A DNA stretch of 64,000 nucleotides, taken from contig CAWAKC010000003.1 in NCBI GenBank assembly GCA_963782525.1, forward strand, positions 352,001-416,000, read 5' to 3'. The position numbers and the translations under genes are program-made. Source of the stretch: Candidatus Bathyarchaeota archaeon. GTDB lineage: Archaea; Thermoproteota; Bathyarchaeia; Bathyarchaeales; Bathycorpusculaceae. The notes beneath the pieces were generated by a model, which saw nothing but the letters and a program-made list of their open reading frames with translations, searched no databases and was not told the origin of the DNA. Of this stretch, positions 9,467 to 40,460 are shown in pieces; position 1 is the first letter of the stretch, and every line of letters begins with the position of its first letter.

Positions 9467-9800
9467 CCAGGCATTGCAAACCTGGAATAATCAACTCTTA
9501 GAAGAAGAAAAACGGCTAAATTCCTACAGAAAAGCTGTCCTTCTTCTTTCAATAATAGTAGAGCGCTCTGTTTTGGCTAGCACTTCTTCTAATAGTCATC
9601 AGATTACCTATCTGGTGTTTAACGGTGGGAATCTGGTTTAGACTTCTTTTTCTTCTTAATTTGGAGGTTCAAGAGAGCTCAAACGAGGAAAACAACACTG
9701 TTTAGTCTGGCAGCATCAGCCGAAATGTAATGTCGGGCATAATGTTCTCCGCAACTGGCGAAAAAAGCCACTGGTACGCAGAACAAAGAAAATCCCTCAC
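9467..9800. repeat. Triplet-arm inverted-repeat cluster 1
   Basis: AGAAGAAGAAAAACGGCTAAATTCCTACAGAAAAGCTGTCCTTCTTCTTTC at 9500-9550 plus half sites. Confidence 0.75.
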
Positions 9801-9879
9801 TACCCTACTTGGTTGAAAAACAAGCAAACGCCAAAATTGACCCGGCATGCAGACCACAACAAAGAAGTGACGTTTTAAT

Positions 9880-9905
9880 TGGTGCGAGGGTGGAACTTGA
9901 ACCCG
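9880..9905 (-). other. Degenerate tRNA 3'-end fragment (att-like scar, Leu-like)
   Basis: Reverse complement CGGGTTCAAGTTCCACCCTCGCACCA: T-loop, acceptor 3' strand and CCA; no 5' half. Confidence 0.5.
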
Positions 9906-10085
9906 TCCCCAGTGGAGACATCACCCGAAGACTCAACTATTAATCGTTTTTTTGGATAGTTAGATATACCAATTTTAAAACAAGCAAATCTTCTAATAAT
10001 TACGTTGCTTTTGGGAGGACAATAAGAAACGGAAACTGAAGCAGAGCACTTATTACTGGGTTAAACTTGGTTACTAACGAAAATA

Positions 10086-10676
10086 ATGCAGCGTTTGAAA
10101 ACTTTACGAGAAACGCTTAAACAAGAAAGCGTTGGTCCCATAATTCGCAGGTTCTTCATTAACACATTATTTGATTCTACTTTTATGCTGCTTGGAATAA
10201 TCGTGGGCTCAGCGTTCGCTGGAGCAGCAGCTGGCTTGAAAATAATCATACTCACTATGTTAACGACAAGTCTTGCTTTGGGCATCTCAACGGGTGTAAG
10301 CGTCTATGAAGCTGAGAGCTTAGAACAAGAACGAAAAATTGTAGATCTCGAAAAGGCACTTTTCACTGACCTAAAAGATACACTTATCCAAAAAACCGCC
10401 AAATATACTATAATAATTGCCACGTTAATCAACTTTGCAACACCCTTGTTCGCATGCGCTGTAACGATCACCCCTTTTATGTTTGTAGCCATAGGAATAT
10501 TGCCTCTGGATATAGCTGGGTGGATTTCTGTTGCGCTAGCCTTGAGTACATTATTTGGTGCAGGTGTTTACATTGGACGAATCGGAAAAACGAATCCCTA
10601 TAAAAAAGGGCTAAGGATGGTAGCCTTTGGAGTGCTTGCTTTCGCCATAGGTTTTCTCTTAAACCTACTCATTTGA
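10086..10676 (+). CDS. VIT1/CCC1-family membrane protein (TIGR00267-like)
   Basis: RRFFINTLFD, LGISTGVSVYEAE; five TM segments; adjacent to DUF211. Confidence 0.85.
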   Translation: MQRLKTLRETLKQESVGPIIRRFFINTLFDSTFMLLGIIVGSAFAGAAAGLKIIILTMLTTSLALGISTGVSVYEAESLEQERKIVDLEKALFTDLKDTLIQKTAKYTIIIATLINFATPLFACAVTITPFMFVAIGILPLDIAGWISVALALSTLFGAGVYIGRIGKTNPYKKGLRMVAFGVLAFAIGFLLNLLI

Positions 10677-10684
10677 GTAGCGAT

Positions 10685-10972
10685 TTAAGGTGTGGGTCTT
10701 TGTGAAATCTGCTTTGCCTTTGATACGTTAACTTCATCTACACCTTTAATTGAAACACCGTTTTCTTGTAAGATATTCACAATTCCGCTATATTCAATAT
10801 TGGCGCCCCTGACAGTGAGTTTTATTGTCTCAGTTTTTGCGTCAACGTCAGTTACTACGATATCGCATTCTTCAACCCCGTTTGTAGCACAAATTGCTTG
10901 AGATAGTTCCACAAGAGAGGTTTCTCGTGCTTTTAGAGCCTCGATTAAGACTCGTCGAATGTGAATTGTCAT
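10685..10972 (-). CDS. DUF211 family protein
   Basis: IRRVLIEALK, VTDVDAKTETIKLTVRG, GVSIKGVDEV. Confidence 0.85.
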   Translation of the reverse strand: MTIHIRRVLIEALKARETSLVELSQAICATNGVEECDIVVTDVDAKTETIKLTVRGANIEYSGIVNILQENGVSIKGVDEVNVSKAKQISQRPTP

Positions 10973-11149
10973 TATGTTTCTCCGTTCCTAAATACAGAGA
11001 TTATGTTTAAAACTCTTTTTCTAGCTAACAGCGTTAGGAGTTTGTTAGCTTGCGACACAATGCGGGGCTGATATGTGCCTCTCTTTGAAAAAGTTCGATT
11101 TAGACCCAGAATCATCCAGACATAGAGAGACTAAAAATTATTTTTCTTT

Positions 11150-11450
11150 GCATTACTATTGTTCCTTCCGCAAGACAGGATTGCAGACTTGATAGTCCAC
11201 TCTTAGAAGAGGAAAAACGGCTGAATTCCTACTGCAAAGCCCGTTCTTCTTTCCAATAGGCTTAGAAAAGTTGGCTGAGTAAAAGAAGACATTACCCTGC
11301 TTCTTCTTTCAACTTTAAGCTAATTTACTGTTGGATTCACCAGTTAACGGGTAGAAGAAGAAGATTGTTGAATTGCCACTTCTTCTTCTTTCAAATGGTT
11401 TAAGTCGAAAGAACAACAAAAAACAAAATTTTTCAACTGTGTTGTTCTAG
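11150..11450. repeat. Triplet-arm inverted-repeat cluster 2 (four units)
   Basis: Units starting about 11205, 11281, 11353 (GAA/TTC) and 11409 (CAA/TTG). Confidence 0.85.
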
Positions 11451-11599
11451 AGAAGGAAATTACACGTGAATAACATAGCAAGGATCATTTTCTTCGGTTA
11501 ATTTAGGCAGAATCTTTTTCTGAGCTGGGATATAAATATGGATTATAAATTACCCAAGTAAACCACAGCAATCTTATCTTTTTTTTGTTTGCGGAACGT

Positions 11600-13636
11600 T
11601 CATGGTTGTAGGTCTTCTGTCTGGCAGAGGACATAAGCGGAGCGAGATGGCAGATAGATGCTGAGCATATTTTGACTTTTCCCTTCAGTGTTGTCTACGA
11701 TAGTGAAGTGAGCCTGCTGGGAGTCCAAGCGCCCGTGTCCTCCGTACTTTTGTGCATCACTGTCTAGTATCATCCGGTATTTTCCAGGAGGAGCTTCAAA
11801 TCGATAATCCGTAAAAGATTGATGGGGATTAAAATTGAAGGCAAAAATCAAATCAGCCCTCTTGAATATAATTACCTTTTGTGTGGAATCCTCATGCAGA
11901 AGTTGCAGGCCAGGTTTTTCAAGTAAGTGGTATGTCTTGGCCATTGCAATCATGTCGCGATCGAAAAGAGCCAGCAAATGATACTTTAGGCGGGGGTCGT
12001 CCGCGAGATGCCATTGTCTAAGAGCGTGTTTGAATGACCAGTTGTTTCCTTCGCGGGGAAAATCTATCCAGTCTGGATGGCCGAATTCGTTGCCCATGAA
12101 ATCTAGATAACCGTTGCTGGCAGTGCTCAGTGTTATCAGCCGAATCATCTTATGCAATGCTATTCCCCGATCGACCTTAGCGTTGTCATCATCGATCCCC
12201 ATGTGATGGTACATGTCTTCCCCGATTAGTCGGAAAATAAGTGTTTGGTCTCCCACTAATGCCTGGTCGTGAGATTCGGCGTAACTAATGGTTTTCTCAT
12301 CTGTTCTGCGGTTGGTAAGTTCGAACCAAAGATGCCCGGTGGGCCAGTCTTCATCTTTGTAATCTTTTATCAGGCGGATCCAGTAATCAGGCACTCCCAT
12401 GGCAAAGCGATAGTCAAAACCGAAACCGCCTTCTAATTGGGGAACAGCTAAGCCCGGCATGCCGCTGACATCTTCGGCTATGGTGATGGCGTCGGGTCGG
12501 ACAGCATGAATTATTCGATTAGCCAAGGCAAGATAGGTGAGGGCATCTTCATCCACACTGTCATCGAAGTAATCGTTGTATGAAGTGAATACTCTCTTGA
12601 GACCGTGTCCCAGGTAAATCATGCTGGTGACGCCATCAAACCGAAAGCCGTCAAAGTGGAATTCGTCTAGCCAATATCGGCAATTGGAAAGTAAAAAATG
12701 CAGAACCTGAGGTTTGCCGTAATCAAAGACGCGTGAATCCCATGCCTTGTGTTTTCCGCGTGGACCTTCATGAAAATATTGAAATAGTGTTCCGTCGAAG
12801 CGGCTTAGTCCTTCTACCTCGTTGGATACTGAGTGGGAATGGATTAGATCCATGGAGACGCTGAGCCCTTTGGCGTGAGCTGTATCGATGAGGAGTTTTA
12901 GATCCTCGGGCGTTCCGTACCGTGATGAAGAGGCGAAAAAGCTTGATACTTGATATCCAAATGAACCATAGTATGGATGTTCTTGAATGGCCATCAACTG
13001 TAACGTATTGTAGCCGGCGTCGACAATTCGAGGAAGCACCCTTAGAGTGAATTCTTGGAAGGACCCGATTTTTTCTTCTTCCTGTGCCATACCGATATGT
13101 GCTTCGTAAATGATAGGGGGTTCTTTAGGTCGTTTGAAATTGGGTTCTTTCCAACAATATGGCTGTGGTGGTGACCATACTTGGGCGTTGAAAATCAATG
13201 TTTTTGGATCTTGGACGACCCGTCGAGCGTATGCCGGGATACGATCGCCTTCGCCTTCTGCCCAATGAATACGGAGTCGATACAGATCGCCATGTTTCAG
13301 TTTGTTGACGGATAGGTGAATTTCCCAGACGCCATATTCGTCGAACCTTTTGAGCTCAAATTCTTTGCTCTCTTGCCATTTACTCATGTCGCCTATCAGG
13401 TAGATTGCTGTTGCGTTTGGAGCCCATTCCCGAAATACCCATTCTCCTCTTTGAAAATGTAGACCGAAGTATTCGTGGCCAGAGGCAAACTCTGATAGGC
13501 TCTTTTTACCCTGTGTAAGGCGATGTTCTGTTTCTTCGATATTTTCCAATCGGTGTCGAATCTGATCAGAAAATGGCGTGAGATAAGAATCGCTTTTCAG
13601 CAGGCGTATTAATCGGTTTTCAGGACCACTCATCAA
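11600..13636 (-). CDS. glgB: 1,4-alpha-glucan branching enzyme (GH13)
   Basis: FREWAPNA, YEAHIGM, YYGSFGYQV, DGFRFDGVTSM, AEDVSG, YAESHDQALVGD, FMGNEFGHP. Confidence 0.96.
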   Translation of the reverse strand: MMSGPENRLIRLLKSDSYLTPFSDQIRHRLENIEETEHRLTQGKKSLSEFASGHEYFGLHFQRGEWVFREWAPNATAIYLIGDMSKWQESKEFELKRFDEYGVWEIHLSVNKLKHGDLYRLRIHWAEGEGDRIPAYARRVVQDPKTLIFNAQVWSPPQPYCWKEPNFKRPKEPPIIYEAHIGMAQEEEKIGSFQEFTLRVLPRIVDAGYNTLQLMAIQEHPYYGSFGYQVSSFFASSSRYGTPEDLKLLIDTAHAKGLSVSMDLIHSHSVSNEVEGLSRFDGTLFQYFHEGPRGKHKAWDSRVFDYGKPQVLHFLLSNCRYWLDEFHFDGFRFDGVTSMIYLGHGLKRVFTSYNDYFDDSVDEDALTYLALANRIIHAVRPDAITIAEDVSGMPGLAVPQLEGGFGFDYRFAMGVPDYWIRLIKDYKDEDWPTGHLWFELTNRRTDEKTISYAESHDQALVGDQTLIFRLIGEDMYHHMGIDDDNAKVDRGIALHKMIRLITLSTASNGYLDFMGNEFGHPDWIDFPREGNNWSFKHALRQWHLADDPRLKYHLLALFDRDMIAMAKTYHLLEKPGLQLLHEDSTQKVIIFKRADLIFAFNFNPHQSFTDYRFEAPPGKYRMILDSDAQKYGGHGRLDSQQAHFTIVDNTEGKSQNMLSIYLPSRSAYVLCQTEDLQP

Positions 13637-13669
13637 AATACCTTATTCTGTTTAAAAGGCCTTCTGATG

Positions 13670-13966
13670 TCATGGGATGTACTCTGTAACAAACTCTTCT
13701 GCTTTTTCTGCAGACAGACAATCTGACAGATACATCTTAATGAGTTCTTTCAAAGCATTCCTTCGTAGTTCCTTGTTATGTTGGTTATTTGATGCGTCGT
13801 TGATTTGGCTATTTTGGTTGTTGATCCAGCTGCATGGATTGTTGATGTCATAATTTGGATTGTAGAGGTCACTTTTTGGATTATTCAGGCAGCTATTTGG
13901 ATTGTCGTCTTGTGTCTTCAAGTCTTTTACAATTCTTCTAAAAAGCGAACCGATTGTTTCAGGCAT
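13670..13966 (-). CDS. Small hypothetical protein with Asn-Pro heptad-like repeats
   Basis: DNPNSCL-NNPKSDL-YNPNYDI-NNPCSWI-NNQNSQI. Confidence 0.6.
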   Translation of the reverse strand: MPETIGSLFRRIVKDLKTQDDNPNSCLNNPKSDLYNPNYDINNPCSWINNQNSQINDASNNQHNKELRRNALKELIKMYLSDCLSAEKAEEFVTEYIP

Positions 13967-14022
13967 ACGAATGCTCCTTTGTGACTATTATATTCCTAAG
14001 GTAAAACATTCTTATTAGTCTA

Positions 14023-15269
14023 CTAGAGCAACGATTCGTAGATTTTTAGTGTCTCATCAGCAACTTTGCGCCACGTGAAGTAGTCTAGTACTCTTTTGCG
14101 TCCATTCTCGCCCCAGTTTCGGGCTTTTTCGGGGTTTCGCAGGGTCAATTTTATTCCCCAAGCTATGTCGACGGGATCTTCACCGTTAACATGCACCCCG
14201 TTCTGGTCCGGCCAGAGCTTAATACTTGTTCTCTGAAACCTACCACGCCGCGCGCGCCTACAACCACTGGTTTCTCCATTGCCATAGCCTCCAGGCTAAC
14301 TATTCCGAAGGGTTCATAGACGGAAGGAAATATACATACGTCCGAAGCGGCGTAATGCATAATTCGCTCAGATTCCGAAACAAAATCAAAGCGGCAAGCT
14401 ACGTTATTCTTAATGTTTAGCCTATCTGCTGTTTCAATTATGTCTTGTTCGTCCCCTTTGCCCAGAATAACAAGTTTAGTGTTAGGAAATTCCTTCAAGA
14501 CAGATGGCATTGCTAACAAAAGGTTTCTAGCGCCCTTTACCCAAGATAGCCTTCCAACGAACAGAAGCATGCTCCAGTCCTTTGGAACGCCATATTTTTC
14601 TCGAATCGCTTCAATGTCCTTTGGATCACATTTTGCCATATCGTAACGTTCAGGGTCCACGCCGTTCCAAACTGTGCTTATTTTTGATGGCTCCCAACCG
14701 TGCCTTACTAGATCTTGTTTCATGGCGAAACTAACAGTGATTATTCTGTCTGATTTTTGGGCCATGGCGTCTTCAAAATGTGACACTACTTCTGACCCTT
14801 GACCCTCGCTTCTTCCCCATTCAGTGCTGTGTGTATGGAAGACCACGGGGATTTTTGTTTCATTTTTTATTATGAGACCCGAAATACTGCTAAGCCAATC
14901 GTGTACACAGACAACATCAAAATGGTATTTCTCTTTTTTTATCAGACCATTAATGAATTTAGTCGCGCTGAGAATATTGTACATGAAAATGTCATTGAAG
15001 AATTTTATGTTGGTGCCCCATCTCTTTAAATCGTCAACCACGAAAAATGGAAAAACATTGCTCGCATCAGCAATCAAGGGCCGATGAACCTCCACACCTC
15101 TTATGATTTCTCTGGTTTTCAAATTGCCGCCAAAATTCAGTGTGAAGACTGAAACGTCATGTCCTAAGGCGATATATTCCTGTGTCACGTTTTCAGCATA
15201 TGTACCCAAGCCACCAACAATCGCTGGTGGGTACTCGTAAACAAAAAATCCAATTCTCAAAATGTTCAC
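14023..15269 (-). CDS. Glycosyltransferase family 4 (glycogen synthase-like), frameshift near 14210
   Basis: EYPPAIVGGLG, HDW, PSVYEPFGIVSLEAMA; C-terminus ..GRKRVLDYFTWRKVADETLKIYESLL* lies in another frame ending at 14023. Confidence 0.88.
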
Positions 15270-15474
15270 CTGAATAAAAGTTCCCGACTAATTTCTAATT
15301 GTATTCATAAGGTTCCAAGTACTTAAATGAACTATAATTTTCCCAGCTTTTCATTATGATTTGGTTCAAAACTAGTGTGTATACTGCTGATTGTTTTGTG
15401 TGTGTTTATTAAAAATATTTTTTAAAAAAAGAAATTTGTTTGGGAGTGTTATGATGCGTTTGTTTATCTCTTTT

Positions 15475-15648
15475 TTAGAGTTTTTCTGGGGCGCAGAGAT
15501 TTTCTGCTTTGGCAGCTGTACGATAGCATCCTTTGCAGATGTATTGCGCATCTTTCACAAGTGGCTTAATCTTTTCTATAGGTACTTTGTCCTCTACCAT
15601 TTTGCAGAGGTGATTTTCATGACCCGGATGAGGTTGTGCTTTTGACAA
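15475..15648 (-). CDS. 57-aa Cys/His-rich small protein (not in ORF track)
   Basis: Own translation MSKAQPHPGHENHLCKMVEDKVPIEKIKPLVKDAQYICKGCYRTAAKAENLCAPEKL*, TTG start preceded by AGGTGT. Confidence 0.7.
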   Translation of the reverse strand: MSKAQPHPGHENHLCKMVEDKVPIEKIKPLVKDAQYICKGCYRTAAKAENLCAPEKL

Positions 15649-15796
15649 AACTTACACCTAAACTACTGGTGCAGTATTGACAAATATACTATTGTGATTG
15701 TGTTTAAGCAACCACATCGTTCTTAGATAAATTGAAAGTTTTAGCCCCAGTGCCATTTCGGATGGTTGGTTTATCAAGGAGAATACCTTGTAAAAC

Positions 15797-15990
15797 CTAA
15801 CTTCTCAAATAAAACAAGAAGAACGGGTGATTTCCTACGGCATGTTTTTCTTCTTCTTTCACCCAAACATGATCATAGAGCAAATGTGAGTTTTTAGGAG
15901 CAAGAATTTTTATCGGTCCCAAGTTATGATTTTTTAGGGTGTATCCAGTCTCTAAAAGAAACAACAAGACACTTTTTCTAAAAAATATTC
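15797..15990. repeat. Triplet-arm inverted-repeat cluster 3
   Basis: GAAGAACGGGTGATTTCCTACGGCATGTTTTTCTTCTTCTTTC, nearly identical to about 21656-21699. Confidence 0.8.
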
Positions 15991-16094
15991 TTAGGCAATA
16001 TTCAATTAATCAATTCAACCACCCGGATTGTTGGCAATAATTAAATAATTTTATGTTACTGTGTGTTATGTGAAGTAATTGGAGGGCTGCTTCA

Positions 16095-16331
16095 ATGGTG
16101 AAAAATGTTATCGATTTAAACGAAAGGGACAGCCGAGTAATCAACATAGTTAAAGCGAAGTATGGGCTCAAAGATAAAAGCCAAGCTTTGAGCGTAATTA
16201 TCCAGCGTTATGAAGAGTGTGAACTTGAACCCCAGCTTAGACCCGAGTTTGTGAAGGAAATAGAGGACACATTTAAGAACGGTAAATTTGTCAAGGTTAA
16301 GAATTTCGCGGAAGAGATCGGGCTAAAGTGA
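16095..16331 (+). CDS. DUF2683-family putative antitoxin
   Basis: INIVKAKYGLKDKSQAL..LEPQLRPEFV; RBS GGAGG upstream. Confidence 0.75.
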   Translation: MVKNVIDLNERDSRVINIVKAKYGLKDKSQALSVIIQRYEECELEPQLRPEFVKEIEDTFKNGKFVKVKNFAEEIGLK

Positions 16332-16366
16332 TTGCTTGTACAGCCTTGAAATCGAGGAAGAGAGAA

Positions 16367-16765
16367 ATGACCAAAGAAGAGGTTTACAAAGACTACGGCA
16401 TGTTCAGCGGTGTCAAAAGTAGGTTAAAAACCAAAACACGAAGACCCCCAAAGAAACTAAAACAGTGTTCCAAATGCGGCAGAGTAGGCGACGCAATGAC
16501 GAAACATTCACTCACAGGCGAACATAAGCCACCTTTCATATGGCTGTGCAGACAACCGTGCCACGACGAAGTGCACAAGTTTGGCATAAAAATGACTAAA
16601 GAAGAAAAAGCAGCACTAAAGCGGCAGCCACCATGCAGCGTACAATTTCCCACAAAAGACAACATTGCCAATCCATATACAAAACTAATTGAGCCTGAAT
16701 CGCTGGAAGGGGAAAAATTCAAGCAGTCATTCAAGCGAATAAACTCTGAAAATGAAGAAACATAA
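16367..16765 (+). CDS. Small Zn-binding HNH-like protein
   Basis: CSKC..KHSLTGEH..IWLCRQPCHDEVH; ATG at 16367 preferred over GTG at 16328. Confidence 0.5.
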   Translation: MTKEEVYKDYGMFSGVKSRLKTKTRRPPKKLKQCSKCGRVGDAMTKHSLTGEHKPPFIWLCRQPCHDEVHKFGIKMTKEEKAALKRQPPCSVQFPTKDNIANPYTKLIEPESLEGEKFKQSFKRINSENEET

Positions 16766-17297
16766 TAAAAAAGCTGAAAAACAAGTAAAACAATTAACAT
16801 TTTCCAATAGGCTTACACATAGAAAGTCGGCTCAGTTGGGAATTCGAGAAAACCGCAGAGAAAGAAAAATCGTTTGCTGCACAGGGAATTTTTTGGCGCG
16901 CTAGATCGGTTAATAGCCCTTCATATCGGAGGGTGTAGGCGCCGATGTTGCTTTCATAAACAAGCCATATAATCAAAAACTGTTTTTAAGATTATCCTTA
17001 ACTTGTCAGCTATTGATAAAAAGATTAGAGTAAGGTTGTGATGCCCGTTGAAGCTACTTTGAGCTAGTTCGTCTGCGTACTATCTCTGCAGAGGTATTCT
17101 TGTCTGGTAGGGGATTTGTTGATATTGCTTTTACGTCTTTTGCTAATTTGGGTGCGGTTTTATCGCTTTTATTCATATAGCCATCCTCATTTGCAGATGT
17201 GCTTTCTAAGTATTTAAGCGATTGATTAGAGCAGTCTTATATATCAAGTCAGCGCAGACTATCCGCTAAACTACACCCATAAATAGTCAGCTTTAGT

Positions 17298-17682
17298 CGT
17301 TAGAAGAAGAAAAACGGCGTTTTCCTAACCGAAAAATGACCATTTTTTCTTCAGATAAAAGACCTTATCGTTTTTCGAGCATCCTGTTAATTAAAAACAT
17401 TCAATTATAACATCGCCTGCACAATACTTGTATTATTCTTCAAGTTATTTTTTGATTGAGTTCTAGTAGTAGTCGACTTTGCTGCAAATTTCACTTCGAC
17501 AACTACTTCTCTTGATTTAAGAACTTTTTTTTATCGATTACTTTGCTATGTGTTTCAAAAATGTATACTTAGTAGAAGAAGCGCGATTTTTTTAATCTTC
17601 TTCTTTTGACCCATGATCCTTTGGCGCATAGCTTGCTTCTGGTAAAGTCAAGGTAGAAGTTGTTGTTCCTCCTAAAATTTTC
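17298..17682. repeat. Triplet-arm inverted-repeat cluster 4; includes a ~215-bp direct repeat shared with 21241-21456
   Basis: Units at about 17301, 17465 (TAG/CTA) and 17571, half site at about 17654. Confidence 0.88.
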
Positions 17683-17881
17683 TCCTATAACAAATACTAA
17701 GGTACGCGAAAATCGACTGTTGATATGTCCGAAACACAAAGAGATAAATCCAAATTTCAATATATAATAATTAATTCTGCGAAACTATTTCATGGTCTTA
17801 GTTCCGCATTTGTTAATTCAACGGGGTTTGTTTCTCAAGCTCAATTTCTAAGCAGATCAAAAAAGGTCAAAAGAACATTAG

Positions 17882-21765: not shown

Positions 21766-21893
21766 AGGGCCAATTCAAAGCACAGCTAAATTTTTGAAGA
21801 AGCTGCTCACCTTTTTTTGCGGCAGGGCAACAAGTAGGATCGGCGCGGTTAGTAATAGGAAGAATCTCGACAATTCGTTACCTTTTTGAAGAT

Positions 21894-27150: not shown

Positions 27151-27416
27151 GGCCTTGGCGAGCCCAAGTAACAAACTTTTTACAAACTGTTAAAGAAAGA
27201 TAGGTTGCAGCTAGAAGCTATAAATAAGAAAATTATCCAGATCCTACCCGATCCATATCATTCAAACCCCTAAAATACCCATTGGACGGCCTACCTCTTA
27301 GCGACTAGCTGTCAGTTTTGTTGATTAAATCGTTCAATTGGTCTATGGCGCTCAGGCTGTATGCCCTTAATTTTTTGGACTAAAAAAGGGGAAGATTAGG
27401 TTTTTGTTTGGCATAT

Positions 27417-30218: not shown

Positions 30219-31065
30219 TTATTGTACAAGGGGTTGTTTACTTGTCTGGGAATTTAAATCTTTTGCAAATTTCTTTTTTACTTACATAAAAAATTAGACC
30301 GCCATGTAATAATTAAGCAAAGTATTTTGAGATTAACTGCAAATTTTTAGAGGTAGATTGCCGCTTTTTGGCGAGAAAGAAAGTTTAGCGCTGGCTATTT
30401 GTAGTTGCATTGTGTAGCCACATTAACTTTTATTTTCTATTGAGTTAATTAAAAGTAACGCTTTATATGTTGGGCAGGTCTGGCGGCTAATAGGCGACAA
30501 GATCCCCTCTCTCTTCCACCGTTTTTTGCCTTATCCCCTTTAGCGTGAGGCTAAGCCTCTTAACAGCTATTTTCTCTTCTTGGGCTCAAGTCCACGGTAT
30601 AAGGGTTTGATACATATCCGTTTTTGAAATTCCTTCTTAAACATCTGCTCGAACCTAGGTTTGAGGAGAAAGGAGAACTTCTCACCATAAAATAGATCCC
30701 TGAGGTTTGTATGTTGGTTGAAGAAATACTTGATATGATCCTAAACAGCCAAGACGGCGACTATGTTATTCAAGTCCAAGGCTTGCAGGCATGCAACCCG
30801 CAGGCAGGAACATTTATAGTAGTTTTTGGCTCAGCTCTTCAGCTAGAAATTGATTAATTGTGCACCGTTGGGTTTCTTGTCGTTCACAGAATTGAAAAGT
30901 CTTCGCTGTGTCAAACCCTTGCGATCTTAATTTCATGAATTTGATTGCTCTCCAGGTAGCCAAGGAGATTAAACGGCTTAATTTGGAACCTGTAGAAAGC
31001 ATGGCAAAGTTTTCTCTTGAGGCAAGTATTCTTCGTTCAAACATATTTAAGATCTATTTTTCGTT

Positions 31066-31180
31066 GGAAGAAGAAGACAACAGTGCTGTGTGCAGGAGCC
31101 ATTCTCTTCTTCTTTCAACTAATTCATTACTTAGAAGAACAACAACACTGGAAAATTGTTTGTTGTTGTTCTTCTTCCAA
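31066..31180. repeat. Triplet-arm inverted-repeat cluster 8
   Basis: GAAGAAGAAGAC..CTCTTCTTCTTTC and AGAAGAACAACAACACTGGAAAATTGTTTGTTGTTGTTCTTCT. Confidence 0.88.
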
Positions 31181-31433
31181 TCAATTTTCAGTTAGGATGG
31201 CGATTTGTGTCCGAGTTCCTGCCTTTTGCGGCTTAGGGGGTAACTGAAAAATTTAAGTGCGTTGTGAAGAGACTATTATTTAGGACAGAGTTATTGCCAA
31301 AGTTTCTTGTTGGTTCTGGCGGTTGCTTATTTCCAAGTGCCCAATAAGCCGGCGTTGAAGGCTTACTCTGAAGTATTCAATTTTATAATCAGGATGTAAC
31401 TCTTCAGGCATCAGAATCAAAACTCCTTAATGG

Positions 31434-31682
31434 TCAAATAAGAACTAAGCCATGCTCAACGTTAGGAACAGCTTCAGATTCAGGCTGACCAAAAAGCTTT
31501 GCCAACTCATCAGTAATCGCATTAATATCAGTTCGACAAACAGTCTCGCCGATCAAGCGATCACGAAACTCAGTCTCCCTAATATATTGCCAAGCCGCAT
31601 TACGCTGAACCTTAAGCGCTTTGAAATCTTGCTCCCGCTGCCGCTGACTGATTTTTCCCTGCAAACTTCTTTTATGAGGCAT
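31434..31682 (-). CDS. Small hypothetical protein
   Basis: 82-aa ORF with ATG and plausible RBS (GGTG); no family recognised. Confidence 0.4.
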   Translation of the reverse strand: MPHKRSLQGKISQRQREQDFKALKVQRNAAWQYIRETEFRDRLIGETVCRTDINAITDELAKLFGQPESEAVPNVEHGLVLI

Positions 31683-32195
31683 AACAACACCATAACGAAA
31701 TTATGAACAATGACAGAAACCACTGCAAACCGTTCACGCTCCAGCTAAGGAGGCGAGGAAAACTAAACGCTTGCCTGCACGAGGCTAACCCGATAGATGA
31801 CACTAATAAGCGCTGGCTTTAAGCAATTGCACGGAAGAATACTTGGCAAAATTGCTTCAAAGAATTTTTTTCGAAAGTAATTAAGCAGTTTTAGCGTTGC
31901 GAATTGTCGGAGTATCGGGAAGACGTCAAAGAAAACGCCCATGCGACCGACGCTTTGAGGTATTCTCTGCCTCTTGAGTTGGAAGAGAAGCCGTTTCTTT
32001 ATGTAGTTCACCGTTGACTAAATATCTTTGCTTCGCAGAGCTTCAACGGCGGAAGCGTCTGATTCAAGATAAGTGATTATATGAATATTAGATAATAAAA
32101 ATTCTTAAATGAATCTTTTGCGCTAATCTATAGCAGAAGAAAAGGAGATTTTTGAAAGATGAATACCTTATCGCAAATCAAGGGGTTGCATTATT

Positions 32196-33879: not shown

Positions 33880-34482
33880 TATCTAAGCTATATGTTAATT
33901 CTTATAAGGTATTGCCATCGATAGGGCTATTTTGTGTAGGCAGCTCTGGGGAAAGCGGTAAGCTTTAACCTCTCCCAGGGGCTGCGGGCTTGCCTTTTCC
34001 CCATGGGGTGACCGAGATTTCGGGTCTGTTGCTGATTGAGTGAAGGTTTGGGCTGTGGGAAATGCAAGCGAGTCAGGATACTTAATATCAAGTTTTAAGT
34101 AGCTGAAAGTTGAGCGCTAAATTATTTTTGTTTTGAAGCATCTCGCCTACTTGCATTAGCACCCTTAGGGCTAAGAATGAAGCGGCCAAAGCATTCTTTG
34201 CAGAAGCCTGTTTTGTTTTGGTAGGAAAGTTTGAGGCCGCATTTGCCTTTGCAGTATTTTGGTACTATGAACCTCCAGATTTCAGTTTAGGTATGTACTC
34301 TAGGGTTACGCTTAGGCGTCGTTTGCTGTTGCTCTTGGTTAGTTCTGAGTTGATTCTAGTGTCTTCGCTTCCAGCTGTGCCGTGCCCGACACTCTTTACG
34401 CGCCAGTTACCCAAGTTGCCTCGGACAAGCTGAGGATTCGAAGTAACCAGATAGAATGGTGGGTGATTTGGGAAGCGTAGAT

Positions 34483-34915: not shown

Positions 34916-34951
34916 ACACTCCTTCCGGCTAAATTGCATGCGTGAATAAGA

Positions 34952-35482
34952 TCATTGCATTTTTTCGATTTCTTGAATAATTTTTGCCAGAAACTTTGGT
35001 TCAATCCTGAACCCTTTACGCACCAAATTTAGCACTGCCTCCTTTGCCTCAGTCTTATCTAATAACTTCTTCCGTATGGCTGTGATTATAACGTAGAGTA
35101 CTCCTTTGACTTTTATGCCCCACGTTTCAGCAAAGGCTCGACCACTAGAGTCATCCATCAACAAAAGAGTATCCTTGCCAATTTCGAGAGCCAAAACTAT
35201 TGCTTGCACTTCACCATGGTGAAGTTCAAAACTGTGGTGCATTATTTTCTGGCAAATTGCCGCCTGTTTTTCGTTAAGCTGCATAGTTTTAAGCCATCCT
35301 TGGTCACATGCATCCTTGATTACGAGTGCGTCACTGTAGCCTTCTTGCAGGCCTATTTCGACTGCTTCTTTGTAACTTTCTTCTGAAATCAGGACTTCAC
35401 CAAACAAGTCTTTGAGTAAGTTGAGTTTGCCAATTTTTGCAAGCCAAATAAGTGGGCTAGTGTTTGAGACTGTTGGTGACAT
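34952..35482 (-). CDS. DUF3368 PIN-domain toxin-like protein
   Basis: VSNTSPLIWL, LHHGEVQAIVLA, LLMDDSSGR, KVKGVL. Confidence 0.9.
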   Translation of the reverse strand: MSPTVSNTSPLIWLAKIGKLNLLKDLFGEVLISEESYKEAVEIGLQEGYSDALVIKDACDQGWLKTMQLNEKQAAICQKIMHHSFELHHGEVQAIVLALEIGKDTLLLMDDSSGRAFAETWGIKVKGVLYVIITAIRKKLLDKTEAKEAVLNLVRKGFRIEPKFLAKIIQEIEKMQ

Positions 35483-35498
35483 GGCGTTGGTGTGTTCC

Positions 35499-35801
35499 TT
35501 AAACTTTCATGTCTTGTTCTAAATCGTGCTCAGAATATTGGATAATGATTCCTTTTTCTTCTAGCATTTTGTAGAGAGCCCACAATGAGACTCCCGCTAA
35601 CTGTGCTGCTTTCCAAGCTGTAACCTGACCCGTTCGGTAAAGTTCAACGGCTTGCTCTATGCTTTTTTCTTTAACGCCGTTTTCGAGAAGTTCACGGATG
35701 AGGGTTGAGCGATCTTTGCCTTCTTTTTTGGCAATTTCTTGGAGTTTCTTTGCTGTTTGGGGCGGTAATCTTAAGGTAATTGTTCCAGACATGTAATTCA
35801 C
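35499..35801 (-). CDS. UPF0175-family antitoxin (RHH and HTH)
   Basis: KDRSTLIRELL, AVELYRTGQVTAWKAAQLAGVS. Confidence 0.9.
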   Translation of the reverse strand: MNYMSGTITLRLPPQTAKKLQEIAKKEGKDRSTLIRELLENGVKEKSIEQAVELYRTGQVTAWKAAQLAGVSLWALYKMLEEKGIIIQYSEHDLEQDMKV

Positions 35802-35859
35802 TGTAATACAATAGATATCAAACGTAACCTATTAAACTTCCCATAAAAACTAAACAATA

Positions 35860-35887
35860 TGGCACCCGGGAAAGGATTCGAACCCCC
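35860..35887 (-). other. tRNA 3'-end fragment (att-like scar)
   Basis: Reverse complement GGGGGTTCGAATCCTTTCCCGGGTGCCA: T-arm, acceptor 3' strand and CCA; no 5' half. Confidence 0.65.
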
Positions 35888-35892: not shown

Positions 35893-36050
35893 CTAATAGC
35901 AATTTTTTCTTCTTTCAACATAACGCCTGCACTAACAAAAGAACAACAAACAAAATTTTGGCGTGTTGTTGTTCTTCCGATTAAGTCAGAATTAAGAAGT
36001 TAACTGAAAAGAAGAAGACACAAAAAAATTTCACTCTTCTTCTTCTACCG
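35893..36050. repeat. Triplet-arm inverted-repeat cluster 10
   Basis: Half site 35894-35918 (same as 24096-24120), units at about 35940 and 36010. Confidence 0.88.
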
Positions 36051-36072
36051 ATAAGACCGCACCTATCGGGGG

Positions 36073-37878
36073 TTAGTTGTTGGATAGTTTTTGGGATAGT
36101 TTGAAGCCGCAGGGTCCACAGAGAAACGCCCAGGTATCGTTAAAGTTTGAGATTTGCCACTCTACATGGCTCTGTTTTTGACAGAAAAGGCATCGGTCTT
36201 CTCCGAAATCCATCTGCAACCTTGTCAGAGATTTAGTGTGAAGTGCAAGTTCTTCTATGGTTTGGTTTGTTCCCGAGTTCTCGAGTTTATCGACTTTGGA
36301 GGGTGTTGGGCTGGTTGGTTGGCTTAGGTTTGGGCTTAGTTGGGTTGGTTGTTGATTGTCATTTGTCTCTAATTTACTACTTTGTTCTGTGCTGACTGGA
36401 GTTTGTGGGGGGTTAGGAGGGGTTATTGTCGTTTCGCTTAGAACCTTGGGTAAGGATGGTACTGCGTATTTTTTGCCTATGCGCGTTAGTTTTTCAGCGT
36501 TAAACTCGTAGAAGACCGCTGGGCCCTCATGATCTCGTACCTTGACTTTTTTGCCGCCCAGCACTTCTCTGAGTCGGTAGCCTATTTTTTGTTTGGTAAT
36601 TTCTGCGAATTCAGCGGTATCCATCTTGTTAGGTTTTTTCTCGTCAAGCTTCCCCTCCAAATCCAAAACTAATGTATCCCAGATTTCGGAGAAAGCAAGG
36701 GGTTTATCTTGACGGTAGAGTTTGCAGACTACTTTGACTATGTGGCCTTCTATGGTGTTGGTTTTTTCGTTGAGGCGTTCTTTTTGCAGCATGTCCAGGT
36801 GTTTGCGGAGGTCTTCTTCGATGGTTAATCCATTGATGATTTGAAGTATGGGTTTCCAGAGTTCTTTTAGGCGTCCTTTGACTGAGAGGTTGATTTCGGG
36901 GAGTTCTTGGTCTTTGGTTGCCAGGCGCCATTTTAGCAACATGTTTCTTAGGTTAGTTAGGCGTGTTTGGTCTTCTTTGTTAAAGTCTGCCCAGTCTTTG
37001 GTTGGGTAGCCTTCGACCATGGGTATGATGACTAAGCGTTCGAGGAGTCCTTTTACTCGTGGGAGTTCTTCGGCGGCGAAGATTTTGAGGCAGAAAACTC
37101 GGAAGTATTTGATGGAGCGTTTGTTCTGCGTAATGATTGTTCTTGGGACTACGGCGCCGTGTTTGTAGCCTGCCTTTAGGATCTTTGATTTTTCTATGTC
37201 CTTGTATATGCCTTGCACTTCATCCTCAATTATAACTCCCGGCGAATCGCTGTCATCTAAGAATCCATATACGTCTGCTACTGGGATTGAGACTCCACTT
37301 AGCGGTCGGTAACACAGCCAGCCCAGTATGCTTTGCGCTACGGTTTTGCCGCTTTCGTTATCTCCCAAAAAGAAAGGATAAGGAACCGTACGTATCTTTT
37401 CCTGCTGATAACTAAGCAGCACACACGCAGCTAGGTAATCTTTCCAGATTGAGTCTAAGTCTAAGAAAAGGTTGAATTCGTCGCGAACCTTCCAAAACAG
37501 CGCCTCACGGCTCGGCACTTCGCCCTCGTAGCAGTCGTATGGTTGATAGGGGTACTCGTTGTTTTCTTTGGGCAAAAACGATGTGCCTTCTAAGGAGACT
37601 TCGGGCAAGATTTTGTATGTTTCTTTGTTTGCGGTTAGAAAAGTTGGTTGGCCTTTGTGGTATATGGCTTCGAAGTGTCCTTGCTCACTGTACCCGCTTG
37701 TTTTGTGTGCTTTGGCCTTTTCTTTTTCTTTAGGAAAGAAGTCCTCGCATGCAGCATCAGCCTTACTCAAGATGCCCTTAACGATATCATCATAGTAGGT
37801 ACATGGGCTATCTTTGACTTTCCAGTTGGCGCAGTCAGCGCATCTCTTTCCCCTTCCCCGCTCAACCAAAACAAACAC
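36073..37878 (-). CDS. Putative mobile-element replication protein (Zn-finger, P-loop NTPase/helicase-like core, low-complexity linker, Zn-finger)
   Basis: CADC..C..C; Walker A-like GDNESGKT; Walker B-like VIIEDE; ILKAGYK; CLFC..CGPC. Confidence 0.6.
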   Translation of the reverse strand: MFVLVERGRGKRCADCANWKVKDSPCTYYDDIVKGILSKADAACEDFFPKEKEKAKAHKTSGYSEQGHFEAIYHKGQPTFLTANKETYKILPEVSLEGTSFLPKENNEYPYQPYDCYEGEVPSREALFWKVRDEFNLFLDLDSIWKDYLAACVLLSYQQEKIRTVPYPFFLGDNESGKTVAQSILGWLCYRPLSGVSIPVADVYGFLDDSDSPGVIIEDEVQGIYKDIEKSKILKAGYKHGAVVPRTIITQNKRSIKYFRVFCLKIFAAEELPRVKGLLERLVIIPMVEGYPTKDWADFNKEDQTRLTNLRNMLLKWRLATKDQELPEINLSVKGRLKELWKPILQIINGLTIEEDLRKHLDMLQKERLNEKTNTIEGHIVKVVCKLYRQDKPLAFSEIWDTLVLDLEGKLDEKKPNKMDTAEFAEITKQKIGYRLREVLGGKKVKVRDHEGPAVFYEFNAEKLTRIGKKYAVPSLPKVLSETTITPPNPPQTPVSTEQSSKLETNDNQQPTQLSPNLSQPTSPTPSKVDKLENSGTNQTIEELALHTKSLTRLQMDFGEDRCLFCQKQSHVEWQISNFNDTWAFLCGPCGFKLSQKLSNN

Positions 37879-37883
37879 TTCCG

Positions 37884-38255
37884 TTATTTCTGAGGTTTAG
37901 CTTTGAGCGGTTGTCGGTAGATCTTGTTTCCTTCAAAGAGCCAGTAGCTGTGTTGGTAGCCTTCTTTGTGGTAGCGTTCGTTGATGGTGGCTTTGGAAGT
38001 CTTTAGAATGTTGTATGCTTGGGTCCATTTGTCTTCTGGGTTGTCTGCTTTGTAGGCAGCTTCAAAGGCTCCGAGCTTTGGCCCTTCTTCGCGATCGAAG
38101 TTCAGTTCCGTGAAGATTGTCTCGTCATCGTTTACTTTTTTTGTTTCTTCTTTGACTTCGGGTGGGGTTAGAAGTTCTATGCGTTGCTTAGCTATGTCAA
38201 CTAGTGCCTGACCTGTGTCTCGGAGTTTCACGAAGAATTCGACTTCTGCATTCAC
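37884..38255 (-). CDS. Hypothetical protein, translationally coupled upstream of the replication gene
   Basis: 123-aa ORF, GTG start with GGAGG RBS. Confidence 0.7.
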   Translation of the reverse strand: MNAEVEFFVKLRDTGQALVDIAKQRIELLTPPEVKEETKKVNDDETIFTELNFDREEGPKLGAFEAAYKADNPEDKWTQAYNILKTSKATINERYHKEGYQHSYWLFEGNKIYRQPLKAKPQK

Positions 38256-38474
38256 GCGGATACCTCCGTTTGGGGTGAATGCTTAGTGATCCAAAAGGTC
38301 CAGCCGTTGCTAGTTCTTTGACCTTCAATTTGTTTTGAGGATAAAAGCTCTAAGCAATGTTTTAGTGCGGCGTTCCAGTTGTTCAACTCCGCAGCCGACC
38401 CCTATGTCTTCGACTCGTGAGGGCACCTTGGCAGCACTGAGGTATTCAATTATTCTTTTGTCAATTTCTTTCAT
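38252..38474 (-). CDS. Small winged-helix protein with one frameshift
   Basis: MKEIDKRIIEYLSAAKVPSRVEDI // NNWNAALKHCLELLSSKQIEGQRTSNGWTFW..*; stop overlaps next start (GTGA). Confidence 0.6.
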
Positions 38475-38513
38475 TTTTTATTCCTTGAGCTTTTTATAGA
38501 CAAAGTTTAACTT

Positions 38514-38623
38514 AACCAGTAGCTGACAGATTGTGCTCTGTTTAGCTGTCAGTTACTGACAAAATGCTCTGTTTCACTGTCAGTCACTGACAAAAAAGAG
38601 GATTAACATGTCAGTTAGTGACA
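38514..38623. promoter_or_regulatory. Array of palindromic operator-like sites TGTCAGTNANTGACA
   Basis: 38547-38561, 38578-38592, 38609-38623 (31-bp period) and a degenerate copy at 38514-38528, between divergent HTH genes. Confidence 0.75.
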
Positions 38624-39648
38624 ATTCGGACTTTGAGATGAATAGTTGCGATATTGAGGAGTCTATAGTGAAAGCTTTGTCTTCAGGTCCAAAGACCCCC
38701 GGCGAGCTTTTGAACTGGGTCTTGAAAGAGACGAAAGTGAATGAGCGGACCTATTATCGGCATCTGGATAAGCTACTGAAAAGTAACGCCATTGAGGAGT
38801 CAATAGAGCATAATAGAGATTCAAGGTCTGAATCAAAGTACTATCTAAAGAGTTCCCCATTGCTGGCGAAGCCTGAGCCTTTGGTTGAGGAGGTTTTGCC
38901 TTCAAGGCGATATTTAGAGATAGCTGCTTGGTTGAAAAAGGAACCAGATAATTGGCCCCAACTTGACGCCATAAGAAAGGCAAGGATCGTTTTGAATAAT
39001 TTTGGCTATATTGTTCCAACCATTGAAGATTCATATAAAGACCCCGATAGATACACTTTTGTATGGTCAGACGAAGCTTGCCGCGGACAACGATATGGCG
39101 AATTTGTTCAACCACGATTTTTCAAATTAAAAGACATTTATCGAGCAATCGTTGCTGACTATTCTGCTTCCTCGTCTGGTGAGGCTGTGTTTGTTGGGGC
39201 TTTTGAATCTGATGTTATGGCAGAGCAAGTTGTCTTGTACGAAGATATATACAGACAAATAGAATTTGAACACAAGCCTGTGCAGTTAAAAATCGTTGAG
39301 GAGCCATTTTCGGTTTGTGTTGCAGTTTGCAAAGAAGTAGATGGTGGATTGCGTGTTGTTTATGTAGAAGGGAAAAGCGGAAAGATAGATAAAGAGTGGG
39401 TCAAGGGAGTTTCTAAACAACTAACTGCAAAATATAGAGTTATTTCAACTTGTAAGGACCTGAAAGAGGATACTAAACGTAAAGTTCTGCTAAAGTTCCG
39501 AATTGCCCTTGAGAAGCAGACATTAAAAATTCCCAGTAGATACGTCAAACTTGTTGAGGAACTTTTAGATTACGATTACCACAGTCCATCGAGCGGCTAC
39601 GTCCACGCTATAGCCTTAGCGGTTGATATAGCTGATCGAAAAAGTTAG
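38608..39648 (+). CDS. Winged-helix domain protein (putative regulator)
   Basis: IVKALSSGPKTPGELL..VNERTYYRHLDKLLKSNAIE. Confidence 0.7.
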   Translation: MSVSDNSDFEMNSCDIEESIVKALSSGPKTPGELLNWVLKETKVNERTYYRHLDKLLKSNAIEESIEHNRDSRSESKYYLKSSPLLAKPEPLVEEVLPSRRYLEIAAWLKKEPDNWPQLDAIRKARIVLNNFGYIVPTIEDSYKDPDRYTFVWSDEACRGQRYGEFVQPRFFKLKDIYRAIVADYSASSSGEAVFVGAFESDVMAEQVVLYEDIYRQIEFEHKPVQLKIVEEPFSVCVAVCKEVDGGLRVVYVEGKSGKIDKEWVKGVSKQLTAKYRVISTCKDLKEDTKRKVLLKFRIALEKQTLKIPSRYVKLVEELLDYDYHSPSSGYVHAIALAVDIADRKS

Positions 39649-39911
39649 GGTCATTTTGCTTTGCAAAAACAAAAAAATGAAACAGTAGGGATTTCTACGC
39701 GGGTGTTTAAGTTAAACCTATAACTTTCTAGGCTAAACCGTGTATAACCGTCCTCTCGCCGACTATGAACTTAGGTTTCAAAATATTTTCTATTTCTATT
39801 TTTTTCCTGTGTTAATCAAACTTACCGGAGGCTGACATCATAGAAAGTCGGTTCACTCGAGAACTCGGGAACAAACATCGACCGCAAGCTGATTGTACCA
39901 AGCTATCAGTT

Positions 39912-40460
39912 AACTGGGAGAAGAAGAAGACGTGCAATTTTTTTTAATCTTCTTCTTCTTCTTTTGACCAGGGCTTCTTTTGGCCGAAGTCAAGGCAAAG
40001 ATGTTCACCCCAAAATTTCTACGTGGACAATTCAATTTGGAAGAGGTTATTTACGAGTCTTTTTTTCTTTTGACTCAGCGGCCTTATTACAAACCCCAAA
40101 GAAGAACAACAATCAAAAAACACGTGTTGTTGTTCTATCAACAATACCGTGAGCTTTGGAAGTAGTAGTCGATAGCGCAAATTTCACTTCGACTACTACT
40201 TCTCACACTAAAGAGCTGAGTTTTCAAACGATACCCCTGCAACATGTTTCAAAGGGAAACGCTAATACCGCCTCTTAGTCCTCTTTTCCTCGATGAAAGA
40301 ACAACAACACTGCACTGCCATCTGTTGTTGTTCTCCCAATCAAGGGAAGCAACCAGCTAACTAAAAGAAGAAGAAGCGCCCTGCAGCAACCTTCTTCTTC
40401 TTTTAAAATGTGTTATAGGCGAAAGAACAACAACAAACCAATTTGCAACTGTTATTCTAC
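39912..40460. repeat. Triplet-arm inverted-repeat cluster 11 (six units)
   Basis: Units at about 39920, 40100, 40161, 40296, 40364, 40423. Confidence 0.9.

Follow-up and report, generated by a model that had tools for sequence, protein, structure and literature searches.

Repetitive extragenic palindromes (REP) and bacterial interspersed mosaic elements (BIME) are short intergenic palindromes with tens to hundreds of copies, complementary changes in their stems, and mixed clusters with linkers. Their abundance is very uneven between related species, and insertion sequences (IS) of the IS110 family choose REP sequences as targets (PMC3733652, PMC11208160). In phage SPP1, the packaging site pac overlaps gene 1, which encodes the 147-aa small terminase TerS and lies just upstream of the gene for the large terminase TerL (PMC6316719). 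Here we describe a locus that bears comparison with both, a 31-kb accessory region within a 64,000-nt stretch of contig C3 (352-416 kb; "the window") of a Candidatus Bathyarchaeota archaeon (genome G000; 2.87 Mb in 12 contigs), in which clusters of hairpins with triplet-repeat arms separate unrelated genes. We put at roughly 0.6 the probability that these units are chromosomal copies of a conserved viral hairpin, likely pac-like, that have become REP/BIME-like, recombination-prone repeats. Position numbers are those of the window unless a contig is named.

The resemblance to REP/BIME elements is one of form and abundance, since a strict scan of G000 returned 80 short palindromic units in 45 mosaic clusters, nearly all of them intergenic. 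The differences lie in the loops (11-30 nt), in the triplet-repeat arms, in a demonstrable source in a viral gene, and in the host, which is an archaeon, while the REP phyla listed in the sections consulted of the work cited above are all bacterial. A REP family of the type associated with RAYT (REP-associated tyrosine transposase) was rejected because the units lack the GTAG/CGTC tag (GGTAG occurs in some D-type units only) and no RAYT or other Y1 gene is flanked by them. The likeness to SPP1 concerns the source gene, where a cis element again lies in the coding sequence of a gene for a DNA-binding protein of about 150 aa upstream of the large terminase (PMC6316719). It differs from SPP1 pac in being a long perfect hairpin in the linker rather than in the part encoding the DNA-binding domain, and in belonging to a protein that has no detectable TerS homology and a predicted role in packaging. 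The pac site of phage P22 also lies within the small-terminase gene. We know of no chromosomal arrays of dozens of pac copies in SPP1/P22-type systems.

The units are far from a chance product of base composition. Searches of the whole window for the three arm motifs AGAAGAAGAA, AGAACAACAA and AGTAGTAGTC gave 19, 12 and 5 matches against 0.41, 0.39 and 0.06 expected, with none of 100 shuffles scoring as high for any motif, and every match fell within 9500-40433. Scanning the whole window for stem-loops of any kind (9 or more Watson-Crick pairs, no more than one mismatch, loop of 6-40 nt) produced 102 non-redundant hairpins, 27 of which could be assigned to the family by their triplet arms, all 27 at 9500-40405; about six degenerate units (11205, 17573, 21241, 21350, 21507 and 40424) were added by reading the sequence. 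Stems are 9-15 bp long and mostly perfect, units span about 45 nt, and left and right arms covary as GAA/TTC, CAA/TTG and GTA/TAC. Unit types were defined by loop and flanks, the 5' flanks being variable (ggt, tta, taag, ctgaa and others). These pattern and script scans, made without a covariance model, under-count weakly paired units, and a MAFFT alignment of the units left the right arms out of register.

These results uphold the original prediction in its description of the locus: about 30 triplet-arm inverted-repeat units with arms in three flavours, gathered in 11 intergenic clusters (9.5, 11.2, 15.8, 17.3, 21.2, 23.8, 27.0, 31.1, 34.5, 35.9 and 39.9-40.4 kb), with no unit found by either scan at 1-9.4 kb or beyond 40.5 kb. 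The central AATT that it ascribed to many spacers is common but only partly general, being present in 9 of 17 strict units in the window and 35 of 80 genome-wide. Its statement that the units are non-coding holds in the window, where only two short open reading frames (ORFs; 21518-21889 and 30908-31195), both mostly repeat sequence, overlap clusters and one unit (23891-23924) lies inside a 160-nt fragment of a viral gene.

In tailed viruses and proviruses endemic to the genus, that viral gene is the native site of the hairpin. It encodes 150 aa and lies directly upstream of the large terminase gene, and the hairpin falls in the part that encodes a linker. Our viral sample consisted of IMG/VR plus a few proviruses. 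The exact CAA-hairpin pattern was present in 18 IMG/VR contigs, at least 14 of them with the host-type flanks ctgaaAG..CTacc, and the GAA-arm pattern in 22 viral contigs, of which about three (L137, L152 and L153) were judged family-like and the rest low-complexity; the GTA-arm pattern matched no IMG/VR contig. In viral locus L120, the hairpin (5957-5994) lies inside a 150-aa ORF (5797-6249) that overlaps the start of the large terminase gene (PF03237, phrog_2), with tail tube and tail genes nearby. A profile search of IMG/VR recovered 52 loci of this gene at 34-99% identity; in 51, the gene's best hairpin has its start at nt 135-160, and the remaining one is a fragment without that part. G000 itself carries homologues with a hairpin at the same place in the gene, of GAA type at C6:13641-14093, of GTA type at C1:166300-166644 and of CAA type in a fragment on C5.

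Pairing in this segment is maintained while the protein changes. Across 49 distinct genes the mean stem has 12.0 Watson-Crick pairs; codon shuffling brings this down to 7.8, and none of 245 shuffles exceeded 11. In 47 of these genes the hairpin is placed at nt 130-160. The arms are runs of codons, namely CAA CAA CAA with TGT TGT TGT (QQQ..CCC), GAA with TCT (EEE..SSS), and GTA or GTT with ACT or ACA (VVV..TTT), so that the linker peptides differ completely (KEQQQ..CCCS, REEE..SSSF, EVVV..TTT) while the pairing is kept, which argues for selection on nucleic-acid structure. The triplet flavours of the arms follow from the position of the hairpin in a reading frame, in which GAA encodes E, CAA encodes Q and GTA or GTT encodes V, with S, C or T encoded by the other arm. 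An AlphaFold model of the 150-aa protein comprises a three-helix N-terminal domain (residues 9-48), a disordered stretch (55-66) and long helices (78-149), and the predicted local distance difference test (pLDDT) falls below 50 exactly at residues 55-66, the linker encoded by the hairpin. By sequence search against solved structures the N-terminal domain is Myb/SANT/GcrA-like (best E 1.8e-6, to 8vd6 "CAP repeat", with no stretch passing alone; GcrA at 0.002); the gene directly upstream of the large terminase has a helix-turn-helix, linker and long-helix architecture.

Host units and viral hairpins are homologous. Four window units were matched to individual viral loci, in each case with the similarity limited to the hairpin:

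23891-23936: matches viral locus L195, 91% over 46 nt
31133-31175: matches viral locus L182, 88% over 43 nt
40292-40334: matches viral locus L180, 91% over 43 nt
24070-24119: matches viral locus L163, 85% over 53 nt

Genome-wide, 23 of 80 host loops scored higher against 35 sampled viral loops than all 20 of their own shuffles, where about four would be expected. Host types B, C, D, E/A and G', and the type with mixed GAA and CAA arms, all have viral counterparts. Larger pieces of the gene also occur: 23856-24014 is a fragment of the viral gene in terS position (aa 38-88, E 2.6e-9), and searches with the 150-aa gene gave 21 matches in G035 (the nearest species), 13 in G010, 8 in G002, 5 in G012 and 3 in G001, many of them fragments centred on the hairpin.

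Fragments consisting of the hairpin, or centred on it, are dispersed through host intergenic DNA, with a copy number that is very uneven among species and much greater in G000 than in most relatives. Our full script scan covered G000, and relatives were sampled by searches. The 80 strict units of G000 lie on 11 of the 12 contigs, which rules out a family confined to the locus, and some stand in stable, syntenic intergenic DNA. They are nevertheless concentrated rather than evenly spread, for the locus makes up 1.1% of the genome and holds 17 of the 80 units and 10 of the 45 clusters; on contig C3, 31 of 39 arm-motif matches fall in the locus region. Eight of the 45 clusters overlap an ORF of at least 100 aa, two of these ORFs being the viral gene and three mostly cluster sequence. 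A composite of about 370 nt with the type order A-B-E-X-D-F recurs at several loci; it begins and ends in an imperfect inverted AGAASAASAA and has no visible target-site duplication. A DNA search gave matches in 11 of 18 species of the same genus (30 in G010, 25 in G012, 9 in G001) and in none of 12 genomes from other genera of the order. The GAA-arm pattern matched 42 times in G000 and at most four times in each of 300 other Bathyarchaeia genomes, with a few clear family members in other genera of the same family, and only six stray matches turned up in 1.46 Mb of Bathyarchaeia DNA taken from 80 loci that surround the malic-enzyme orthologue.

Individual clusters can be followed between species. 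The cluster on C11 occupies the same site in G035 and G010 and evolves faster than its flanks; at this orthologous site the G035 copy is short of exactly one hairpin (49 nt, bounded by TTC microhomologies), which is most simply a deletion. The cluster at C1:217 kb is common to relatives. At C7:325 kb, homology ends right after the tRNA that precedes the cluster in four of five relatives, and the G010 contig ends there. The tRNA match in question (C7:325224-325345; L103 2725-2846) lies about 140 nt before the hairpin cluster, and its span of 122 nt points to an intron. The cluster at C1:576.6 kb likewise has a tRNA, a tRNA-Arg, ahead of it, and sequences resembling tRNA 3' ends flank the clusters at C1:576.87 kb and C9:228.3 kb. 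Clusters seemed to point one way within each contig, but this gave no usable signal of a chromosome-wide strand bias, with only 34 of 80 units confidently oriented, contig orientation arbitrary and GC skew flat.

The hairpins are also the target of a mobile element. The one IS110-family element of G000 (PF01548 and PF02371; C1:218001-219233, L102 3003-4233) splits the left arm of a CAA hairpin at AGAACA^CAACAA, with CA on both sides, and the same site was used by all four copies of this subfamily, one in G000, two in G035 and a partial one in G010 (L102, L111, L112 and L115). Two diverged copies in G038 have another target, GGCAGCG^CGCGCT-like. This recalls IS621/IS110, in which a DEDD/IS110 element likewise enters one exact position in a repeat (PMC11208160), with the difference that here the element enters the (CAA)n arm of an archaeal hairpin of viral derivation.

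The 31-kb locus is hypervariable and fast-rearranging. Its left edge (9386-9419) marks the end of synteny with the two closest relatives: L021, the closest relative from the malic-enzyme search (about 90% identity over shared DNA), is collinear with the window from 2 to 9386 and then diverges, and G035 is collinear to 9419 and then runs into a hairpin-rich locus of its own, about 29 kb long and holding 11 units. Our blocks 11597-15745, 16087-16362, 16368-16767, 34059-34259 and 34943-35884 recur there at 87-95% identity, in a changed order. In G012 the same blocks are spread over contigs C5, C16 and C13, and the block with the glycogen branching enzyme gene glgB stands without units nearby; its flanks are adjacent nowhere in G000, so that no empty site could be defined. 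The predicted association of clusters with accessory DNA is upheld. As for excised or alternative forms, the sequencing runs with matches all had small shares (0.16 or less), and the four examined consisted of contigs of relatives. Joints seen there, such as 35924>40297, 40308>35954 and 40296>31135, link similar hairpin copies, have short sides or low depth and may be cross-mapping of repeats in other strains, and were not counted as circles or deletions.

How viral hairpins came to pattern a chromosomal locus can be put as a series of steps. The viral hairpin would act in cis, at the level of DNA, within the packaging module, most likely as a recognition or cut site of the terminase, a pac-like role suggested by the position of the gene and the analogy with SPP1. 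Breakage or recombination at this site may seed fragments into the chromosome, where the copies would then act as mosaic repeats of the REP/BIME type. Through ordinary homologous recombination, arms and linkers shared between clusters in direct orientation would promote unequal crossing-over as well as loop-out and re-insertion, so that blocks could be reordered without a dedicated recombinase and the locus would become a patchwork of accessory blocks.

Several observations weigh against this account. Most host loops have no match among the viral loops sampled, flanking viral sequence is absent from most host units, and the orientation of host units relative to the sense of the viral gene is mixed (5 plus, 4 minus, with no call for 8 of 17). 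The 150-aa protein has no family match in Pfam or PHROGs, and Foldseek returned nothing significant for it (best E 0.26, with the small terminase 6ejq second at 0.4); its gene occupies the small-terminase position, and we infer a terminase role from gene position and architecture only. A comparison of G:T and A:C mismatches in viral hairpins gave a raw 27 versus 13 that became 14 versus 13 after allowing for one clade, the source of 13 of the A:C mismatches, and hence no strand signal; host units likewise gave no usable strand signal. The recurring A-B-E-X-D-F composite suggests that host copies also spread as composites by a further mechanism. Finally, the blocks break near the units and not within them, at distances of 5 to about 1300 nt from the closest hairpin.

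Along the locus, the clusters and related features are as follows:

9420-40500, no strand assigned: hypervariable locus, about 67% long ORFs (sum of listed ORFs), with unrelated cellular genes as cargo
9500-9547, plus strand: cluster 1, one type-A hairpin with GAA arms and loop ..AATTCCTACAG..; degenerate arm remnants to about 9660
11205-11448, plus strand: cluster 2, four hairpins, 11205-11250 (A, degenerate), 11280-11311, 11353-11389 (D, GAA) and 11410-11448 (F, CAA)
15812-15859, plus strand: cluster 3, one A'-type hairpin with 94% identity to the unit at 21650-21699
17302-17700, plus strand: cluster 4, hairpins 17302-17352 and 17465-17507 (GTA), a degenerate one at about 17573-17605 and a decayed GTT-type one at about 17664-17700
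21182-21760, plus strand: cluster 5, at least eight hairpins of various types at 21182, 21241, 21350, 21427, 21507, 21587, 21651 and 21728
23843-24116, plus strand: cluster 6, hairpins 23891-23924, 24020-24060 and 24072-24116
27041-27151, plus strand: cluster 7, two hairpins, one of F type (CAA) and one of H type (GAA)
31063-31175, plus strand: cluster 8, hairpins 31063-31119 and 31133-31175, the second with mixed GAA and CAA arms
31425-31832, minus strand: provirus remnant, 91% identity to the DNA directly upstream of the gene in terS position and the large terminase gene in G010:C4
34493-34527, plus strand: cluster 9, one D-type hairpin
35939-36046, plus strand: cluster 10, two hairpins, 35939-35976 (F) and 36007-36046 (GAA)
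39917-40455, plus strand: cluster 11, six or seven hairpins, including 39917-39961, 40100-40136, 40159-40202 (GTA), 40298-40334 (CAA), 40362-40405 and a degenerate one at 40424-40455

Direct repeats of 36-85 nt with 60-95% identity (families D5-D12) connect the clusters. The segment 17455-17680 in cluster 4 is directly repeated as 21228-21455 in cluster 5, and 27070-27128 in cluster 7 and 40323-40381 in cluster 11 form a 95% direct repeat. Inverted matches between clusters are confined to the palindromic units, with no inverted repeats at cluster level, which indicates that all clusters of the locus share one orientation. Separately, a 42-nt inverted repeat (83% complementary; 36265-36306 and 39835-39876) brackets the segment at 36.3-39.9 kb, and a sequence related to it (catagaaagtcggctcag..) follows the toxin gene near 16815 (16.8 kb).

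The cargo proved as unrelated as had been claimed, and its functions are ordinary cellular ones: a VIT1-like protein and DUF211, a glycogen branching enzyme with a GT4 glycosyltransferase, large beta-propeller/Ig-like proteins and an NHL-repeat protein, a catalase, and a PIN/UPF0175 toxin-antitoxin pair, with genes on both strands. A 1045-aa ORF at 17882-21019 contains internal tandem repeats of about 290 nt (4-6 copies, 60-79% identity) that are probably Ig-like domains, its one Pfam match being a weak, sub-threshold one to CSDE1. Two adjacent small genes (16087-16362 and 16368-16767) resemble a toxin-antitoxin pair, from which the ORF tested (16328-16765) had no family match; their counterparts in G035 (91% and 93% identity) lie 12 kb apart, so that the pair has been split or reassorted between species. 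To the right of the locus, the 41-64 kb segment is a defence-type island with a Vsr endonuclease, a fragment of an NgoPII restriction enzyme, a split SNF2/ResIII helicase, a sacsin-domain protein, a C5-methylase fragment that ends at a tRNA-Ile (44365-44442), and a DEAD helicase of 1695 aa that includes an MrfA Zn-binding domain. Relatives of the organism were recovered from peat, fen, bog and soil.

Matches to the large terminase were found in 98 of 120 genomes of the genus, often several and up to nine per genome, with eight in G000, as though the genus bore an exceptionally heavy burden of related proviruses or elements of viral origin. Large terminase genes of G000 include C6:14068-15513, C7:60-1502, C1:446970-448408 and C3:76040-76968, and some terminase genes across the genus are broken by stops.

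Enzymes that could work on the units as sites were sought throughout G000, and the recombinase or HUH nuclease that the original prediction had envisaged does not accompany the locus, the tyrosine recombinase, Y1 and IS110 matches all being elsewhere or unrelated. PF00589 tyrosine recombinases gave eight matches, none of them in C3:352-416 kb, and PF07282 (TnpB-type) gave none in the genome. Three Y1 transposase genes (PF01797) each have their own GC-rich hairpins and no triplet-arm unit nearby. They belong to IS200-type elements without TnpB (C3:60079-60643, C3:287.8 kb and C7:224.4 kb) with GC-rich hairpins at their ends, and the copy at C3:60 kb is absent from the otherwise collinear L021, which points to a recent insertion.

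Membership of several known classes was rejected, in agreement with the earlier view that the pattern is not CRISPR (clusters of regularly interspaced short palindromic repeats), attC or REP, although for REP the palindromic mosaic clusters were present and it was the tag and the RAYT that were missing. CRISPR was dismissed because the units are inverted and variably spaced, and a k-mer scan of the 12 contigs found no CRISPR-like array. Miniature inverted-repeat transposable elements (MITEs) or palindrome-associated transposable elements (PATEs) of a resident IS were set aside since there is no visible target-site duplication, the ends of the IS200-type and IS110 elements of G000 are unrelated to the units, and PF07282 is lacking.

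Among other explanations, the one that survives best, although we hold it to be unlikely, is that the clusters are functional pac mimics, retained for their recruitment of terminases from several lineages of virus, so that accessory DNA would be packaged and transferred or viral packaging sabotaged by a decoy. Ordered arrays of diversified viral packaging-site hairpins, one type per virus lineage, could then serve as a "transduction platform" that exports and shuffles accessory cassettes, packaging being started here by the terminase of any tailed virus, resident or invading, that becomes active, or as a decoy that wrecks viral packaging, a proposal we advance tentatively. A single cluster does mix hairpin types of different viral lineages, the units all point the same way within the locus, which would be required of a polar packaging signal, and the sizes of the locus (about 31 kb) and of its G035 counterpart (about 29 kb) are within the listed lengths of viral contigs (up to 37.7 kb); blocks have been exchanged between species, and the defence island is next door. 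Against this, the pac identity of the hairpin is itself conjectural, units decay and are deleted like neutral DNA, the array types differ from the proviruses resident in G000, and most species of the genus have viruses without arrays, 7 of 14 sampled genomes having a terminase and at most two pattern matches. Phage satellites of the phage-inducible chromosomal island (PICI) type carry the cos or pac site of their helper, and the comparison holds in so far as host-resident DNA would here carry a copy of a viral packaging signal, if the hairpin is one. The locus differs from them in having no integrase, replication or interference genes, and many diversified copies in place of one site.

Less probable again is that the units are selfish palindromic elements, REP-like or similar to the Rickettsia palindromic element (RPE), which move by themselves and have invaded both intergenic DNA and, in frame, the tolerant linker of the viral gene, the viral copies being secondary. 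High copy number, patchy occurrence among species, and a mosaic and intergenic habit would be expected of such elements, as would the composite bounded by inverted AGAASAASAA; stop-free triplet arms would suit insertion in frame, and REP families are known IS110 targets (PMC11208160). What speaks for an ancestral feature of the viral gene instead is the fixed position of the hairpin in 51 of 52 homologues down to 34% identity, with no aligned homologue without the segment. Furthermore, among recognised ORFs, units occur only inside this gene family and its fragments, no RAYT was found, the hairpins at the three Y1 genes being different ones, target-site duplications are not to be seen, and there is no clean pair of filled and empty sites, the sole case of presence and absence being most simply the deletion described above.

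It is very unlikely that the units act at the level of RNA, as transcribed terminators or stabilisers, precursors of small RNAs, or antisense or decoy RNA against the viral message. Stable perfect hairpins with U/C-rich 3' arms would fit such a role, type-A units share an A:C mismatch that is a G:U pair on the other strand, and the RNA library X23 includes contigs that match 31121-31240 and 40346-40406 with at least 90% identity. These contigs come from relatives, though, and may be DNA carry-over, while mismatch types in general show no net strand bias. The units stand 5' of, 3' of and between genes of either orientation and yet lie on one strand, the linkers contain no promoter-like motif (by reading), and Rfam points to no RNA family: at gathering thresholds, Rfam together with ARAGORN found only the tRNA-Ile at 44365 in the window, and at E <=0.01 on eight cluster loci Rfam gave tRNAs and one sub-threshold tmRNA-like match (18.7 vs 47 bits) elsewhere in one of them.

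The original proposal of dedicated, integron-like archaeal sites for the capture and shuffling of cassettes can be all but dismissed: it would account for a hypervariable locus with unrelated cargo, toxin-antitoxin pairs, sites in one orientation and blocks shuffled between species, and integrons and clusters of attC sites lacking integron-integrases (CALIN) are reported in Archaea including Thermoproteota (10.1101/2022.02.06.479319), which share with our units the features of folded single-strand-type sites between unrelated accessory genes and an array that varies among relatives, but here one to eight different units occupy each junction, the stems are perfect and without extrahelical bases or RYYYAAC/GTTRRRY cores (by reading), cargo lies on both strands, no IntI or other integrase is in or near the locus, breakpoints have no fixed place in units, and units recur genome-wide, including in inherited clusters of stable syntenic DNA. 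What stands of that proposal is the picture of structured, non-random, non-coding hairpin sites enriched in accessory DNA.

Within the main-text literature searches that we made, no earlier description of these elements was found; a full-text search for intergenic hairpin repeats in Bathyarchaeia likewise returned none, and the text of a paper on Bathyarchaeia viruses makes no mention of hairpins or palindromes. Read as chromosomal copies of a viral hairpin, the units give prokaryotic intergenic palindromes a concrete origin in a cis-acting hairpin of a virus gene, where the origin of REP-like repeats is generally obscure, and explain the odd, covarying, triplet-periodic arms as codon runs in a hairpin that had to be kept both paired and translatable. 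They also draw attention to a conserved DNA structure in the packaging module of uncultured tailed viruses of Bathyarchaeia, a candidate pac site. If copies in the chromosome still attract terminase, they would amount to a naturally occurring system, either for gene transfer driven by viruses or for defence, and a transduction platform or decoy of this kind would, if true, be a host-virus interface without a described counterpart. For the organism itself, an abundant and uncultured archaeon of soil and peat, the locus is a place where viruses, an IS110 element and homologous recombination jointly reshape accessory genes.

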